A DNA stretch of 32,589 bases from Candidatus Aenigmatarchaeota archaeon (lineage in GTDB: Archaea; Aenigmatarchaeota; Aenigmatarchaeia; CG10238-14; SCSR01), in assembly GCA_039000165.1 (NCBI GenBank), contig JAWBTW010000008.1, positions 1 through 32,589 of the forward strand, in the 5' to 3' direction. Each line of letters starts with the position of its first letter. Position 1 is the stretch's first letter. The translations under genes and the position numbers were made by a program. This document shows, piece after piece, positions 266 through 10,476 of the stretch. The notes beneath the pieces were generated by a model. It saw only the letters and a list, made by a program, of their open reading frames with translations. It did not search any database and was not told where the DNA came from.

Positions 266-306
266 GAAACTACCATAGGATAAGCTGTTTATCAAGTCCT
301 GGCAAC
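266..306 (-). other. 3' arm of pre-23S processing stem (BHB)
   Basis: Inverted repeat of 3546-3586; GUCCUGGCAAC/GUUGCCAGGAC helix, GAG bulge, UCAA/UUGA 4-bp helix, UAA bulge, then a long outer helix starting with one mismatch. Confidence 0.9.
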
Positions 307-610
307 CTCGGGCGATTAGGAAAGGCGGGCTGAACGCCTCGCTCGAAAGCTTGGCGCGTACACCCCCTTCCTATCAACCTCCTCGTCTAGGAGAGCCCTC
401 GTTGCTCTACCGTTCCTTGCGGAACAGCAGAGCAATTGGCTGTCTATTTTCCCGGGCGGTTTCGTCCTTAGATGCCTTCAGGACTTATCCGCTATGGCTT
501 AGCTGCCCGGCTGTGCCATGAACAACCGGTAGACCAGAGGCCACGGATGGGTGTTCCTTTCGTACTCACCCATCCTTCCGGTCAGACAGCCAGCACCTCC
601 GGTAGATAGC

Positions 611-644
<34 letters not shown>

Positions 645-743
645 AACGTCCCCCTTTAACCAGTGGGCACCTGTACCCTTGGCCGCTACTGCACGGCCAG
701 GAGGGGGGGAGCCGACAGCGACGCACCAACGCGCCGGGTCAAT

Positions 744-786
744 TTACCCGCTCGTCGCTATCCTGTGGGATGAAAACCCCTGAGCT
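744..786 (-). other. 23S BHB intron, 43 nt, after E. coli-equivalent 2477 (H89)
   Basis: GCCC/GGGU central helix, AC|A and AA|A bulges, GCUC/GAGC intron stem; removal restores GAAAGCCCACAUUGAC. Confidence 0.9.
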
Positions 787-958
787 GTGGGCTTTCACCG
801 GCCACGGGCCCATTATCCCCGAGGTAGCTTTTCTGATACCACCGGCCGCCATTAAGGCGAACCGATGTATCGCTAGCCCAGGCTTTCGCCCTTGGATCCC
901 TCGCTTTGCGGGATCCAATCAACCCAGCTTTTGCGCTTACACTCTACTCCGGATTTCT

Positions 959-1054
959 TTCGGGTGTCAGAAGCTGGTTAAAGCTCATGAGCTACCTCCA
1001 TACTCATCTTTAATCATTCTGGAGCAGTGTAATCATAGCTTCAACTTCTGACAT
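959..1054 (-). other. 23S BHB intron, 96 nt, after E. coli-equivalent ~2306 (H84 loop); contains a box C/D guide layout
   Basis: CGGG/CCCG helix, UC|A and AA|A bulges, 9-bp UGUCAGAAG/CUUCUGACA stem; removal restores GGGUCAGAAAUCC. Confidence 0.95.
976..1045 (-). ncRNA. Intron-encoded box C/D-like guide RNA (predicted 23S G2251 and U2438)
   Basis: C AUGAUUA (1030-1036), guide CACUGCUCCAGA, D' AUGA, C' AAGAUGA, guide ending GAGGUAGCUC, D AUGA (985-988), closing stem GUUGAAGC/GCUUUAAC. Confidence 0.75.
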
Positions 1055-1109
1055 GACCCGGATGAGCTGAGCTTTGGGCGCCCTTGATCTCTTACCAAGG
1101 GCGTACCGC

Positions 1110-1193
1110 TTGCTGGTTTAGGAGCTGTTCAGACCGTATGCCCCTAATCATCTTTTCATAACTTAAGGGACTCTACATTCCAACTCCTAAACT
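1110..1193 (-). other. 23S BHB intron, 84 nt, in the P-loop after E. coli-equivalent G2252
   Basis: GCUG/CAGC helix, GG|A and AA|G bulges, 12-bp intron stem; removal restores GGCUGGGGCGGUAC. Confidence 0.95.
1116..1192 (-). ncRNA. Intron-encoded box C/D-like guide RNA with two 16S targets
   Basis: Degenerate C AUGUAGA, guide UCCCUUAAGUU, D' AUGA, C' AAGAUGA, guide GGGGCAUACGG(U), D CUGA; both 11-mers are perfectly complementary to 16S (6944-6954 and 6652-6662). Confidence 0.85.
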
Positions 1194-1346
1194 CCCAGCC
1201 GAACTGCCCATCTGACGCTGTCCCCTTACGGGTAAGCCGTAAGGTTGAAAAGGGCTGGTGTTACACTTTCCTCTCAGCCTCGGCCGAAGCCTACGCCTGA
1301 TAACGAGTCCCAGCTACTCTATGCAATTTCAACCTTACAGCAACGC

Positions 1347-1377
<31 letters not shown>

Positions 1378-1505
1378 TTTCCCACCGGAGGTCTCTGGCC
1401 TATTCACCAGAACAGCAATTTCGCTGGGTCCCAACCCAGGACAGCGGGGAAGTCGTTAAGCCGTTGAACGGGCCGTCAATTAAACGGCAAGGGATTGCGC
1501 TACTT

Positions 1506-1551
1506 ATGTCGCCCAGGCGGCGTATCATCAAATCAGATGACCGCCCTGAGT
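1506..1551 (-). other. 23S BHB-type intron, 46 nt, after E. coli-equivalent A1927 (just 3' of H69), with K-loop
   Basis: GUCG/CGAC helix, UA|A and AU|A bulges, CUCAGG/CCUGGG stem, imperfect outer helix; internal AUCUGA-UUU-GAUGAU K-loop. Confidence 0.92.
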
Positions 1552-3545
1552 TACGACGGTCAGAGTTACCGCCGCCGTTTGCCGGGGCTTCTCCCGGTTG
1601 GAACCGGGTTTCACACACCGGCACTGGGCAGACCTCAGAGACTGTACAAATCCTTTCGGACTAGCAGTCTCCTATGTTTTTGTTAAACAGTCGCTTCCCC
1701 CTTGTCACTGCGACCTGCTCTCCCTTTCGAGAGAACAGGCACCCCTTCTAGCGAACATACGGGGCCAGTTTGCCGATTTCCCTGGATTGGGTTCTCCCAA
1801 CACGCCTTCGCCTTCTCAGCGACCCTACCTGTGTCGGTTCTCGGTACGATCATGGAGGATCCTTCCAGCTTCCCTTTTCACGGGTTCCAGGAATCGGCCG
1901 AACTCCGCATACGCGGAGCTATTCCTGTCTTCACCTACTTCTCCTCATTACGAGACTCCGTAGGCTTCAACAGTTAACTTGCGTCGGCCTATCCTGAAAC
2001 GTCGGAAAGCTGGCTTGCGTTGCCGCACGTACCTCCATGGTATCGGAATATTAACCGATTTCCCCTTCGAGCGCTTCGGTTAAGAGCGCCCTTAGGATCG
2101 ACTAACTGCCAGCTGACGAACATTGCTGGCAAACCCTGAGGGTTCAGGCGGCTGGGATTTTCACCCAGCTATGCTGCTACTCATGGCAGGATCTTCAATT
2201 CTGCACGGTCCACTTGTTCTTACGAACAAGCTTCTACCCGTGCAGAACGCCTCCCTACCCCCTGCTTTCGCAGGTCTGGGGTATCGACAGCCGGCTTAGT
2301 CCCTTCCATTTTCAGGGCCCAAACCCTCGGCGGGTAAGCTGTTACGCACTTTTTAACTGATGGCTGCTTCTAAGCCTACAGCCCCGCTGTCTATGGGTTT
2401 GGACTCCCTTCTTCGTTTAGCCGGCATTTAGGGGTCTTAACCCCAGGTTGGGTTGTTCCCCTTTTGGGCACCGAGCTTAACCCAGTGCCCTCACTCTGGC
2501 CTTCTCAGGCAGCAGTAGATTCAGAGTTTGACAGGACGGCTGATGCTTTCGCACCTTGACCGTCCAATCAGTCTCTTTACCCTACTGCTTACCTCCGGCC
2601 AGGCTGAGCTGACGCTCATTTCGGGAGGAACCAGCTATCACCGGTCTCGATTGGCTTTTCACCCCTAACCCTGGGTCAACCGAGCGATTGGGTCTCAGCA
2701 CCGGTTCGGACCTCCATTCCTCTTTCGAGGAACTTCATCCTGCCCAGGGTTAGATCGACCGGCTTCGGGTCTTGCTCGAGTAATTTCGGGCGCTTTCACA
2801 CCCCGCCCCACGTCTCTTGCGAGACTACGGGCTTGTCGCTTTCGCTACGGCTACGGGGCTTAAACCCCTTAACCTCACTACTCGAGCAAACTCCCTGCCC
2901 CGTTTTTCAGAACGGATGCTAGGACACTGTAAGCTACTCCTCGTACTCTTCTCTTGCGAGAATTTCCTTCGGAGTAGCACCTTTCATGCCCTAGCTGACT
3001 ATGCCCAACTTGGTTTCAGGCTCTTTTCACCCCGCTTTCGCGGTACTTTTCAGCTTTCTCTCACGATACTAGTCCGCTATCGGACTTGGTTAGTATTTAG
3101 GGTTGGATGTTAATGCCACCCAAATTCCCACTCCATATCCAAGGAATGGTACTCAGGAGACTTGGCATTTTCCTTCTTGCCTTCCCCTACGGGACTATCA
3201 CCCTCTATGGTGGAGCTTTCCAGCTCACTTCGGGTCGACAAGCGAGGAAAGACCCAAGTCCTGTAACTCCACATCCTTTCTTTCTTTTCGAAAGAAAGTT
3301 CGGTTTGCCCTGTTCGGCTTTCGGTCGCCCCTACTCACCGAATCTCGTTTGATTTCTTTTCCTGCGCCTACTGAGATGCTTCACTTCGGCGCGTTCCCTC
3401 TCCTTCCGGAGTAGCCCTTAACGGGCTAGGAATCCCATTCGGCAATCCTGGGGTCAAATCCTCCATGCGGATAACCCAGGCTTATCGCAGCTTGGCACGG
3501 CCTTCTTCGGCTAACCAAGCCGAGCCATCCACCAAGTGGGCTACT

Positions 3546-3586
3546 GTTGCCAGGACCTCTTGACCAGCCTATCCTATGGTAGTTTC
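3546..3586 (-). other. 5' arm of pre-23S processing stem (BHB)
   Basis: Pairs with 266-306. Confidence 0.9.
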
Positions 3587-3593
3587 ATCTTCT

Positions 3594-3655
3594 GGTTTCA
3601 TAAAGACAGTTCGTTCTTCATCTTTCATCAGACGCTGTCAGTTAAGTCATCAACC
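3594..3655 (-). ncRNA. Box C/D-like guide RNA in the 23S leader (module A; predicted U2504 and A2600)
   Basis: C UUGAUGA, guide ending CUGACAGCG(U), D' CUGA, C' AAGAUGA, guide containing CGAACUGUCU, D AUGA, GGUU/AACC ends; matches 23S 712-720 and 614-624. Confidence 0.75.
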
Positions 3656-3702
3656 TCAACTCTTAAACCCTTATTATCAAAATAAGGATTCGCATCAAAG
3701 GA

Positions 3703-3760
3703 AGCTCGTTAGGTGCCCATTTCTTCATCTTTTATCAGTTAGAAGGGCAAACTCATAGCT
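3703..3760 (-). ncRNA. Box C/D-like guide RNA in the 23S leader (module B; predicted U2552)
   Basis: Co-varied K-turn AUGAGUU/AACGA, D' CUGA, C' AAGAUGA; guide UGGGCACCU perfectly complementary to the A-loop at 664-672. Confidence 0.75.
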
Positions 3761-3829
3761 AAACAAAAAGGCCGATGTTCAAGCTAAGCAGACATAACGA
3801 CACCGGCAACTAATTTATTAGTTTTTATA

Positions 3830-3846
3830 ATTTAAAAGCTTTATCC
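3830..3846 (-). promoter_or_regulatory. Putative BRE/TATA promoter of the pre-23S transcript
   Basis: Minus strand GGATAAAGC-TTTTAAAT, about 20 nt upstream of where the GC-richer structured leader begins (~3810). Confidence 0.6.
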
Positions 3847-3900
3847 TATTTAAGCTTTATCGTTTTTTTAAAACGACGTGAGTTGAAGTTAAATTAACAA

Positions 3901-4121: not shown

Positions 4122-4846
4122 ATGGAAAGGGAGGAAGACATAGAAGTAGAGTTCCAATCAACTCTAGAGGAAATTAAAGAAAAAACGGGCTTTAAAAAAG
4201 AGTGTATTTTAGATCTCTTTATCTTCGAACTTTGCAGAAGAGAAAAAAAGCACATCAAAATTTTAGGAAACATCCAATCGGTATAGCTCATCTTATTTCT
4301 CTGTACATCGATCCCTCTCTCTTGAATTATTCAATAGTCGAAGGTCCTGGAGCACCTATTAAAAAAACTCTTCATCCTTCTTCAACTTTTCTTGATGAAG
4401 AGAAAATAGAGTATGTTGATTATTTTTGTAGCTACTTTCTAATTAGTCCTAATATGCCTGTGCCAAGAAAAGAGTTAAAGGATAGCATCTTAGTCTGTTT
4501 ACTTTCTGATTTAGAAACTCCTTATAGAATAGGATTGATAAATCCTTCTCGAGTATTAGGCATAAAAATTGAAATGGATAAATATGATGAAGGAAACATT
4601 AACTCTCAACTCTGTACCTTCAGAAAATTTTATGGTTGTAACCAAATTCATAGAATTAGTGATGAAGAATTATACGAGTACACAAAAGAAAAAATGAAAG
4701 AGAAGTTTGCAGACTATGAAAAGAGAAGTGAAACCTTGTATAAAATCTTCAAACCATTTTATGAAACTTACAGAAGTTTTCTAATCAAGGAGCTTGAAAG
4801 ATTGGCTAGAGAACTCATGGGAAAACATAGAACATATGTAACGTAA
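4122..4846 (+). pseudogene. Hypothetical protein split by a -1 frameshift (4122-4286 plus frame ending 4846)
   Basis: ATG at 4122 lies about 24 nt after a TTTAAA box; the 54-aa frame overlaps a -1 frame open from 4196 to 4846. Confidence 0.5.
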
Positions 4847-4935
4847 AAATGCAAGTCTTATTAAGTAAAAAGTTCTTTTCATTTTCTTTGCTCTGAAATA
4901 TTAGTGATTTAAAGCTTACGATTATTTAATTTATT

Positions 4936-5742
4936 ATGCCTTTGGTAACAATCCATTACCATACAAAAGAAGGAGAAAAACTTAACCTAGGAAAAACTTC
5001 AAAAAAATTAGCAGAAGATTTTGAAAAAAGCAAAGTAGATTATCTTATTCTTACTGACAAAGCTTTTGCGTGTGAAAAAATCGATTTGCCGATAAAAGCT
5101 TTCAAAAAAATCAAATCTTACCTTAAAGCAAAAAAAGAAAACTTGCTTTTTGGTTTAGAATTTTTAACTTTCGACAATTATCATATTTTGGGTTTATGCT
5201 TAACTCCAGAAAAATGGGAAAACAAGGTATCGCCAAAAAATTTAGAAGATGTTTGCAAGAGTGTAGAAAGGGACGAAGGATTTATTGTCGTTCCGCACCA
5301 GTTTGGACCCTGCGGGTTGGGTAAAAGAGCGGATGAGATAATTAAACTTTACGAAAAAGGTGAAATTTGTCATAAACCTTTCATAGAAGTAAGCTATTAC
5401 TTGGAATCTATCCCTTCATTAAAAAAAGGTCTTAAAAAAGCAAACAAAGAAGCTATAAATTATGCTAGAAAAAACAACTTGGCCTTGATTTCTGGCTTAG
5501 ACTCAAGGTTCAAAAATTTTGATTTAGCTTTTAATTTCTTTAAAGAAGATATAACTAACTGCTTAGAAAAAGCTTCGTTACAAGGCTTTAACAACAATTA
5601 TATAATTCCTTACATTACTCCTTCGCATACTCCCATGCTTATGGAAACCATATATTTGCTAAGAGATCATACGATTGGTTTCCTAAGAACTGGTAAATTT
5701 GAAATAGCTAGTTATTTCCTGAGTCAAATAAGTAAGAGTTAA
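4936..5742 (+). CDS. PHP-domain phosphoesterase-like protein with degenerate metal ligands
   Basis: Motif order HYHT / LTDK / GLE..HILGL / VPHQF / IEV / GLDSR resembles PHP HxH, TDH, GxE, AHP, SDAH. Confidence 0.7.
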   Translation: MPLVTIHYHTKEGEKLNLGKTSKKLAEDFEKSKVDYLILTDKAFACEKIDLPIKAFKKIKSYLKAKKENLLFGLEFLTFDNYHILGLCLTPEKWENKVSPKNLEDVCKSVERDEGFIVVPHQFGPCGLGKRADEIIKLYEKGEICHKPFIEVSYYLESIPSLKKGLKKANKEAINYARKNNLALISGLDSRFKNFDLAFNFFKEDITNCLEKASLQGFNNNYIIPYITPSHTPMLMETIYLLRDHTIGFLRTGKFEIASYFLSQISKS

Positions 5743-5770
5743 ATCTTTTAAAGTATTTTTATTTTCAAAG

Positions 5771-6223
5771 ATGACAGAAGTAAAAAACTATGTTGGAATT
5801 CTTTTCGGGTTAGATAAGGATAGAGACGCGAGAAACTATTGCTTAAAACTGATGAAGAAATACGAGAATAATGAGAATTTTATTTTTGTTGACTTGGAAT
5901 GTTTTGCGAAAAAGGAAAGCAAAATAAAAGTTCTGTCAAAATTCTCTAAAGTTTGTTTTGGTGTGCACAGTTGTGATGATTATTCACCAACGATTTTTGA
6001 ACTAGAGTTCTGTGATAAAGGTATTGTTAGGGATTTGGCTTTTTATTTACAAGAAAAAAAACTTGTCGATAGGTTGTTCCCTTATCCTTATGAGATGTGG
6101 AAGTTAAGAGACTTTCCTACAAATTTTGGTATCATAGAAATTTTCGGAAATGAAAAGGCTTTTCATCGTTTCGAACAATTACTTCTTCAAACTTTGGAAT
6201 TCTTAAAAACTCAAAGAATTTAA
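5771..6223 (+). CDS. Hypothetical protein
   Basis: 150-aa ORF with typical composition; no family recognised. Confidence 0.7.
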   Translation: MTEVKNYVGILFGLDKDRDARNYCLKLMKKYENNENFIFVDLECFAKKESKIKVLSKFSKVCFGVHSCDDYSPTIFELEFCDKGIVRDLAFYLQEKKLVDRLFPYPYEMWKLRDFPTNFGIIEIFGNEKAFHRFEQLLLQTLEFLKTQRI

Positions 6224-10368: not shown

Positions 10369-10476
10369 TGCTGGGACCGGGATTTGAACCCGGGACTTCG
10401 GCGTTTCATCTTTCATCTTCTTTCAAAGCTCATAAAGCTTATGAGCGCCGCGTTCTAACCGCTGAACTATCCCAGC
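10369..10476 (-). tRNA. tRNA with CAU anticodon, most likely elongator Met, with a 35-nt intron (10404-10438)
   Basis: G1-C72, CGGCG/CGCCG anticodon stem; best BHB is UCAU/AUGA helix with AA|G and AA|C bulges, i.e. position 38/39. Confidence 0.92.

Follow-up and report, generated by a model that had tools for sequence, protein, structure and literature searches.

A leader-encoded box C/D-type module with compensated non-canonical boxes as a probable guide for A-loop methylation in an Aenigmatarchaeota archaeon

Introduction

The 2'-O-methylated uridine Um2552, located in the A-loop of 23S rRNA, is among the most conserved of rRNA modifications. In bacteria and many archaea it is formed by the stand-alone methyltransferase RlmE (RrmJ/FtsJ), and in yeast the guide RNA snR52 and the enzyme Spb1 act at the equivalent positions of 25S rRNA. 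Methylation of the A-loop at U2552 and/or G2553 is described as general (PMC7994747), and a comparison of seven archaea lists U2552 as a predicted target of a box C/D RNA in five of them (Dennis et al., 2015, PMC4644070). The locus described herein, the leader of a 23S rRNA gene in a Candidatus Aenigmatarchaeota genome, raises the question of how this nucleotide comes to be modified in a genome-reduced archaeon of the DPANN lineage in which RlmE was not found, and whether a short module lying a few kilobases upstream of the A-loop on the same strand may serve as the guide.

Results

Genomic setting of the leader

The window (the whole stretch of 32,589 nt that was analysed) is contig C8 of a host genome of 783 kb with 33% G+C and an estimated completeness of 91.6%. 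The closest relatives of the proteins it encodes are found mainly in metagenome-assembled genomes (MAGs) of Candidatus Aenigmatarchaeota (58-93% identity), and DNA near-identical to the window is present in hot-spring metagenome runs. The 23S rRNA gene (296..3556, minus strand; RF02540, 2651.8 bits) is enclosed by a processing stem, the 5' arm of which (3546..3587, minus strand) pairs with 265-306 in a 42-nt inverted repeat of 86% complementarity. Between this gene and the tRNA-Ala gene (3973-3900, minus strand), and on the same strand as both, sits a guide module of ~58 nt (3703..3760, minus strand), hereafter module B, ~115 nt upstream of the processing stem. A neighbouring C/D-like module, module C (3594..3655, minus strand), directly precedes the stem, such that both modules lie upstream of it.

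A putative archaeal promoter, comprising an A-rich element and a TATA-like box read by eye at 3822..3842 (minus strand), is located ~25 nt before a conserved 5' hairpin, and a similar element at the same distance was recognized by eye in relatives; the A-rich/TATA-like sequence at 3842-3822 suggests that the 23S rRNA gene has a promoter of its own. A single 170-nt contig (depth 3.66) from a metatranscriptome run, the library of which may include DNA and the contigs of which carry no end information, covers 3562-3731, and 3732-3893 is without cover in the same run.

Several further features of the region deserve mention in their own right. The conserved 5' hairpin (3771-3807, minus strand), which stands at the presumed transcript start, includes the A-loop-like motif GGUGUC, with which the D guide of module B could also pair. 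A second conserved hairpin (3662-3697, minus strand), the flanks of which (GAUGC and UAAGAG/UGAAGAG) are kept in relatives, separates the two modules and may represent a further K-turn-like element. The 16S rRNA gene (7881-6332, minus strand) is unlinked from the 23S rRNA gene by three plus-strand open reading frames, which lie between it and tRNA-Ala (4202-6223). Given that a DNA contig from another run carries 677 different letters between 3853 and 3900, and that the tRNA is found ~750 nt upstream in one relative (G001), the linkage of tRNA-Ala to the 23S rRNA gene is variable. Elsewhere in the window, an Rfam tRNA match extends over 108 nt (10369-10476, minus strand; 59.9 bits) and was missed by ARAGORN; this tRNA likely contains an intron, as both its span and the missing ARAGORN match indicate.

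Anatomy of module B

Read along the minus strand, module B (71.8 bits with its covariance model, R1) begins with the 5' arm of a terminal stem of 3 bp (AGC, 3758..3760), which pairs with the 3' arm at the other end of the module (GCU, 3703..3705). The arms enclose, in order, a variant box C (AUGAGUU, 3750..3756; consensus RUGAUGA), a D' spacer of 11 nt (3739..3749) with a 5' UGCCC able to pair to the D guide, a D' box (CUGA, 3735..3738) that is conserved in most modules, a C' box (AUGAAGA, 3722..3728), a D spacer of 12 nt (3710..3721), and a variant box D (ACGA, 3706..3709; consensus CUGA). The guide proper comprises nine nucleotides of the D spacer (3719-3711), and the fifth position upstream of box D is an A at 3714. 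Internal D' and C' boxes, a short loop between them (6-7 nt), and spacers of ~12 nt are features of archaeal C/D sRNAs, all of which module B displays; its terminal boxes likewise retain the UGA and GA of the tandem G.A pairs next to the short stem. The inner two pairs of that stem are GC in 42/51 and CG in 43/51 distinct modules, and the outer pair varies among GC, AU, and UA. Boxes C and D are predicted to fold as a K-turn.

From the literal consensus RUGAUGA/CUGA, the boxes deviate at four positions (C5, C6, D1, and D2). No Rfam C/D-box family exceeded its gathering threshold on the module, the best being SNORD5 with 14.3 bits against a threshold of 55 (E = 9.6). Strict consensus scans of the whole genome for C/D sRNAs returned 0 matches, a result that is uninformative about absence in a lineage that uses variant boxes; the sequence-only reading had proposed that such boxes escape consensus searches. 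A relaxed, K-turn-aware scan gave two matches in the genome, one of which is module B, and 0 in the reversed genome. The other match is a second C/D sRNA candidate (C1:43505-43553, minus strand), also with variant boxes (AUGAUAA/UUGA), the spacers of which complement 16S rRNA over 9 nt near position 1428 and over 8 nt at the 3' end near position 1545.

Compensatory change in the terminal boxes

If the variant boxes form a K-turn, its non-canonical stem should be variable in sequence and yet remain paired, which is what the C5:D2 and C6:D1 covariation described below indicates. In a 52-row alignment, the UGA of box C is kept in nearly all rows and the GA of box D in almost every row. In alignment A2, which comprises 51 distinct modules and was fitted to the model structure, so that its pair counts lean towards that structure, the C6:D1 pair is CG in 25 modules, AU in 14, UA in 7, GC in 2, and unpaired in 2; four Watson-Crick types are thus represented, and 48 of the 50 cells are paired. 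At C5:D2 the counts are GC 21, GU 5, AU 4, UA 1, and other 20, and inspection by eye shows the last class to consist mostly of U opposite U. K-turn covariation attains a score of 0.405 as opposed to 0.132 in shuffles, none of 500 of which reaches it, and partners slid along the alignment, a control that shares the same structure bias, score at most 0.113. These data support the earlier suggestion that the boxes hold on to the tandem G.A pairs and compensate at the two adjoining pairs, and the compensated deviation recurs both in relatives and in the second C/D sRNA candidate of this genome (C1:43505-43553).

The guide, its target, and the register

The target of the D guide is the A-loop of 23S rRNA, i.e., helix 92 (664..672, minus strand): the 9-mer at 3719-3711 complements 23S 672-664 exactly, as had been stated from the sequence, and it occurs at only these two places in the window (2 matches against 0.08 expected). 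The fifth guide nucleotide upstream of ACGA (3714, A) pairs with window position 669. When aligned with an annotated 23S rRNA of E. coli, this position corresponds to the initial U of the helix 92 loop, which is position 2550 of the 2901-nt copy and which we take to be U2552 of the standard numbering. The loop sequence is UGCCC in this genome, as opposed to UGUUC in E. coli. The stem of helix 92 reads CAGG/ACUG and closes on a G opposite an A.

The D guide thus offers the rRNA complement of 8-9 nt with a fifth-position target that is expected of a C/D guide, and the duplex it would form is only 8-9 bp long. In a single genome, such a match carries little weight: rRNA complements of nine nucleotides number 4 in the 343-nt leader and 3.6 +/- 2.4 in 2000 shuffles, so the match is not significant by itself and its significance comes from the relatives. 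Among these, the register is constant, every module read having exactly 2 nt between the ...ACC of its guide and its 4-nt D box, which places the fifth position always on the U2552 equivalent; the assignment of that nucleotide as the target, previously made for this genome, therefore holds in every module read. In one relative (G025), the U2552 position itself reads G.

Guide and loop among relatives

Guide and loop were compared in 45 genomes, 40 of which were tabulated by script and 5 read by eye. Three A-loop variants exist in the order (UGUUC, UGUCC, and UGCCC), and the guide follows them: GGGCACC accompanies UGCCC in 9 genomes, GGACACC accompanies UGUCC in 25, and GAACACC accompanies UGUUC in 2, with a further 5 genomes in which guide and loop are joined with one G.U pair. 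The guide is hence fully paired to its A-loop variant in 41/45 genomes, and the other 4/45 (G024, G093, and G097, which belong to one genus, and G056) have one uncompensated A.C mismatch at guide position 7. On a 23S rRNA tree of 44 rows, which has several long branches and omits G024 for want of sequence, there are five independent pairs with different loop states; the guide differs in the same way in 3-4 of them, in the opposite way in none, and not at all in 1-2. Because such events are too few, a sign test over the independent pairs gives p = 0.125. The change of UUC in the loop with GAA in the guide constitutes a further co-change at another position.

Distribution of the module

The leader can be aligned across several genera, and searches with R1 were extended to the order and to other families of the phylum. 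Matches were obtained in 53/118 genomes of the Aenigmatarchaeota order, mostly once per genome, many of the 118 MAGs being without assembled rRNA operons; the 99 genomes searched from other families in the phylum gave only 2 weak matches. At least one weak match within the order is an unrelated C/D sRNA, found in G107 outside the leader context (C1:263687-263748), with fully canonical boxes (AUGAUGA, CUGA, UGAUGA, and CUGA), from which it follows that canonical boxes also exist in this group. In the 24 fetched loci with a sufficiently long contig, the A-loop lies 2.6-5.8 kb downstream of the module on the same strand, which identifies the module as a leader element throughout.

One genus, g6, has the same loop type and is without the module, R1 having matched 0/11 of its genomes and 0/8 in a second search. 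A pattern search of five g6 genomes for a trans-encoded A-loop guide produced no sRNA-like match, all 8 hits having the appearance of coding sequence. The guide is accordingly not indispensable.

The 23S rRNA genes of several relatives contain insertions opposite window positions ~637 and ~664 (L046, L049, L050, L057, L058, L062, and L129), which are probably archaeal rRNA introns. Some of these directly follow GGGU, ~30 nt downstream of the A-loop, and in G014 and G069 the insertion comes immediately after the A-loop sequence.

The comparative data also bear on the simplest alternative, namely that a chance complementarity in an AT-rich leader has been dressed with boxes seen through relaxed motifs. 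The count of nine-mers at the shuffled expectation and the need to relax the box definitions, canonical ones giving no match, would be compatible with such an accident; conservation of the module across families, covariation in both boxes and guide, and the excess of the relaxed scan over the reversed genome contradict it, and this explanation is regarded as extremely unlikely. Taken with the structure of the module, they make it very probable that module B is a real, conserved guide of the C/D type.

Protein machinery and the question of methylation

A methylating C/D particle demands L7Ae, Nop5, and fibrillarin, and the host genome encodes all three in open frames without stops and above the Pfam cut-offs (L7Ae 109 bits, Nop5 231 bits, fibrillarin 284 bits), with the Nop5 and fibrillarin genes adjacent. 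A search for RlmE/FtsJ, which had been proposed as a check, found none in this genome (91.6% complete), the best rrmJ score being 20.7 bits against a cut-off of 300. Of the two matches to the FtsJ Pfam family, one is a generic class I methyltransferase and the other an RsmB/F protein. Across 41 genomes of the order (this genome and 40 relatives), no FtsJ protein of the RlmE type was found, and the best FtsJ score was 37.5 bits.

These observations bear on a rival in which the C/D-type ribonucleoprotein acts solely as an antisense chaperone, pairing with the A-loop during 50S assembly and opening helix 92 or timing its formation without methyl transfer, in the manner in which chaperone snoRNAs such as U3, U8, and U14 act by antisense pairing. 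Co-transcription of the module with its target, tolerance of an A.C mismatch in the four genomes noted above, loss of the module in genus g6, and the resemblance of the D' spacer to the target would all suit a chaperone. A pure chaperone would have no need, however, of a spacing that invariably puts U2552 at the fifth position, and the 12-nt spacer is typical of methylating archaeal sRNAs; moreover, fibrillarin is present and another U2552 methylase was not found in the genomes searched. The chaperone reading is consequently judged quite unlikely, and module B probably directs formation of Um2552.

The D' spacer and the internal helix

The D' spacer lends itself less readily to interpretation. 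Its 8-nt match to 23S rRNA (1743-1750) exists and is not conserved, which justifies the doubt expressed about a D' guide in the sequence-only reading. By eye, the 1743-1750 region is conserved while the D' spacers vary, and the D' spacers of 12 relatives share no common rRNA site; 1743-1750 was rejected as a D' target, as the spacers of relatives track neither that site nor any common one. The D' spacer, then, does not present the fifth-position target that defines a C/D guide.

What the D' spacer does offer is a partner for the D guide within the module. Pairing of an internal helix, UGYYC/GRRCA, reaches 85.5% in 11 rows rich in family f1, and the minimum-free-energy fold of module B includes this helix. 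Both points speak for a further alternative, in which the module serves the leader as a structural signal or one for processing, with a K-turn and an internal hairpin recruiting L7Ae and the A-loop complement arising as a by-product. Against this, families f4 and f5 retain the guide and lack the helix, the pairing of which amounts to only 60.6% over all 51 rows; the z-score of the fold is only -1.5; and a hairpin constraint by itself leaves unexplained why the D spacer should track the variant of an A-loop 2.9 kb away. The internal helix was therefore rejected as the main function, being insufficiently general, and a purely structural role for the module is considered very unlikely. The UGYYC end of the D' spacer may mimic the target, or it may be a relic.

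Module C and a second architecture

Over 10 nt, the D guide of module C complements 23S 623-614, with 621 opposite its fifth position; 621 precedes by two nucleotides the A aligned to position 2600 of the E. coli copy, and the target strand adjoins helix 93. The D' spacer of module C also carries a stretch complementary to its own D guide. In the sister family f4, the two guides are combined in one sRNA, with the D position taken by the A-loop guide and the D' position by the guide of module C, in the same fifth-position register. The occurrence of the same two guides in two architectures and one register argues that both are working guides.

The pairing of these modules in one leader invites a more far-reaching proposal, which is offered as speculation and deemed unlikely: that they constitute a cis-acting, co-transcribed device, with guides for U2552 of the A-loop and for the helix 93 strand near A2602. 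Under such an arrangement, methylation of the catalytic centre, and perhaps its chaperoning, would take place on one and the same molecule ahead of leader removal; the obligatory one-to-one coupling would allow a near-invariant A-loop to drift from UGUUC through UGUCC to UGCCC with the guide following; and the D' spacer, as an A-loop mimic, would occupy the guide intramolecularly, as a placeholder, and keep it masked until transcription of the real target.

Discussion

The reading preferred here is that of a methylation guide, for which the following course of events may be envisaged. Transcription of the 23S leader would yield module B on the upstream side of the processing stem, and L7Ae would bind the terminal K-turn formed by boxes C and D as well as the internal C'/D' motif, whereupon Nop5 and fibrillarin would assemble on the guide RNA. 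The 9-nt D guide would then pair with the A-loop of helix 92, and fibrillarin would 2'-O-methylate the nucleotide opposite the fifth guide position, i.e., the U2552 equivalent at window position 669. Guidance could take place in cis, with the guide RNA still attached to its own pre-23S rRNA, or in trans, following excision from the leader.

Judged by its sequence, module B belongs structurally with the archaeal box C/D guides and departs from them only in the literal box consensus. The archaeal C/D sRNAs predicted for the A-loop share with module B the target nucleotide and the N+5 rule, the bipartite C/D-C'/D' layout with spacers of ~12 nt, and the protein set of L7Ae, Nop5, and fibrillarin (Dennis et al., 2015, PMC4644070). 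Unlike those sRNAs, module B has compensated boxes that deviate at C5, C6, D1, and D2, is encoded inside a 23S leader as opposed to a free-standing or ORF-overlapping gene, and belongs to a DPANN (Aenigmatarchaeota) lineage in which the A-loop varies (PMC4644070). The principle of encoding a guide in the precursor of the RNA that it modifies has a counterpart in the Haloferax pre-tRNA-Trp intron, which encodes a box C/D RNA (Clouet d'Orval, 2001; Singh, 2004; as cited in PMC7714728 and PMC7994747); there, the guide resides in a tRNA intron and the target in the tRNA, whereas module B resides in an rRNA 5' leader with its target ~2.9 kb downstream. Dicistronic and polycistronic sRNA genes, including the tRNA-sRNA units of Nanoarchaeum equitans and others, likewise have sRNA modules in tandem and no promoter for the individual module, and their maturation, like that of module B, is presumed to proceed via protection by the ribonucleoprotein and trimming of a longer transcript (PMC7994747). 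The gene contexts enumerated in section 9 of that review are promoters, ORF overlaps, clusters, tRNA fusions, and tRNA introns, and rRNA leaders are not among them (PMC7994747).

No C/D guide embedded in an rRNA leader was described in the literature surveyed, with the proviso that Tang et al. (2002) might report a spacer-encoded C/D RNA. What is new in the present case is the combination of a gene in the 23S leader, compensated non-canonical boxes, a DPANN host, and a guide that co-varies with a drifting A-loop. The work of Tang and colleagues is reportedly concerned with RNAs from archaeal rRNA spacers. RlmE, the protein-only solution to the same task, modifies the same nucleotide with a presumed role in the A-loop that module B would share. 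Guide-dependent methylation of an A-loop uridine would also be common to the yeast snR52/Spb1 system and module B, the yeast system being eukaryotic, trans-acting, and equipped with canonical boxes.

The implications of these findings extend beyond the single locus. Functional C/D K-turns can hide behind compensated boxes that do not conform to consensus, and sRNA finders based on consensus motifs will therefore under-count guides in lineages of this kind. Likewise, the order provides a natural series of guide-target co-changes at a loop of the ribosomal active site, complete with two lineages in which guide and target are mismatched and one genus without the module. Lastly, module B represents a testable answer to the question of how Um2552 may be formed in genome-reduced DPANN archaea that lack a recognizable RlmE, the proposed answer being a guide RNA that would travel with the transcript of its own target.
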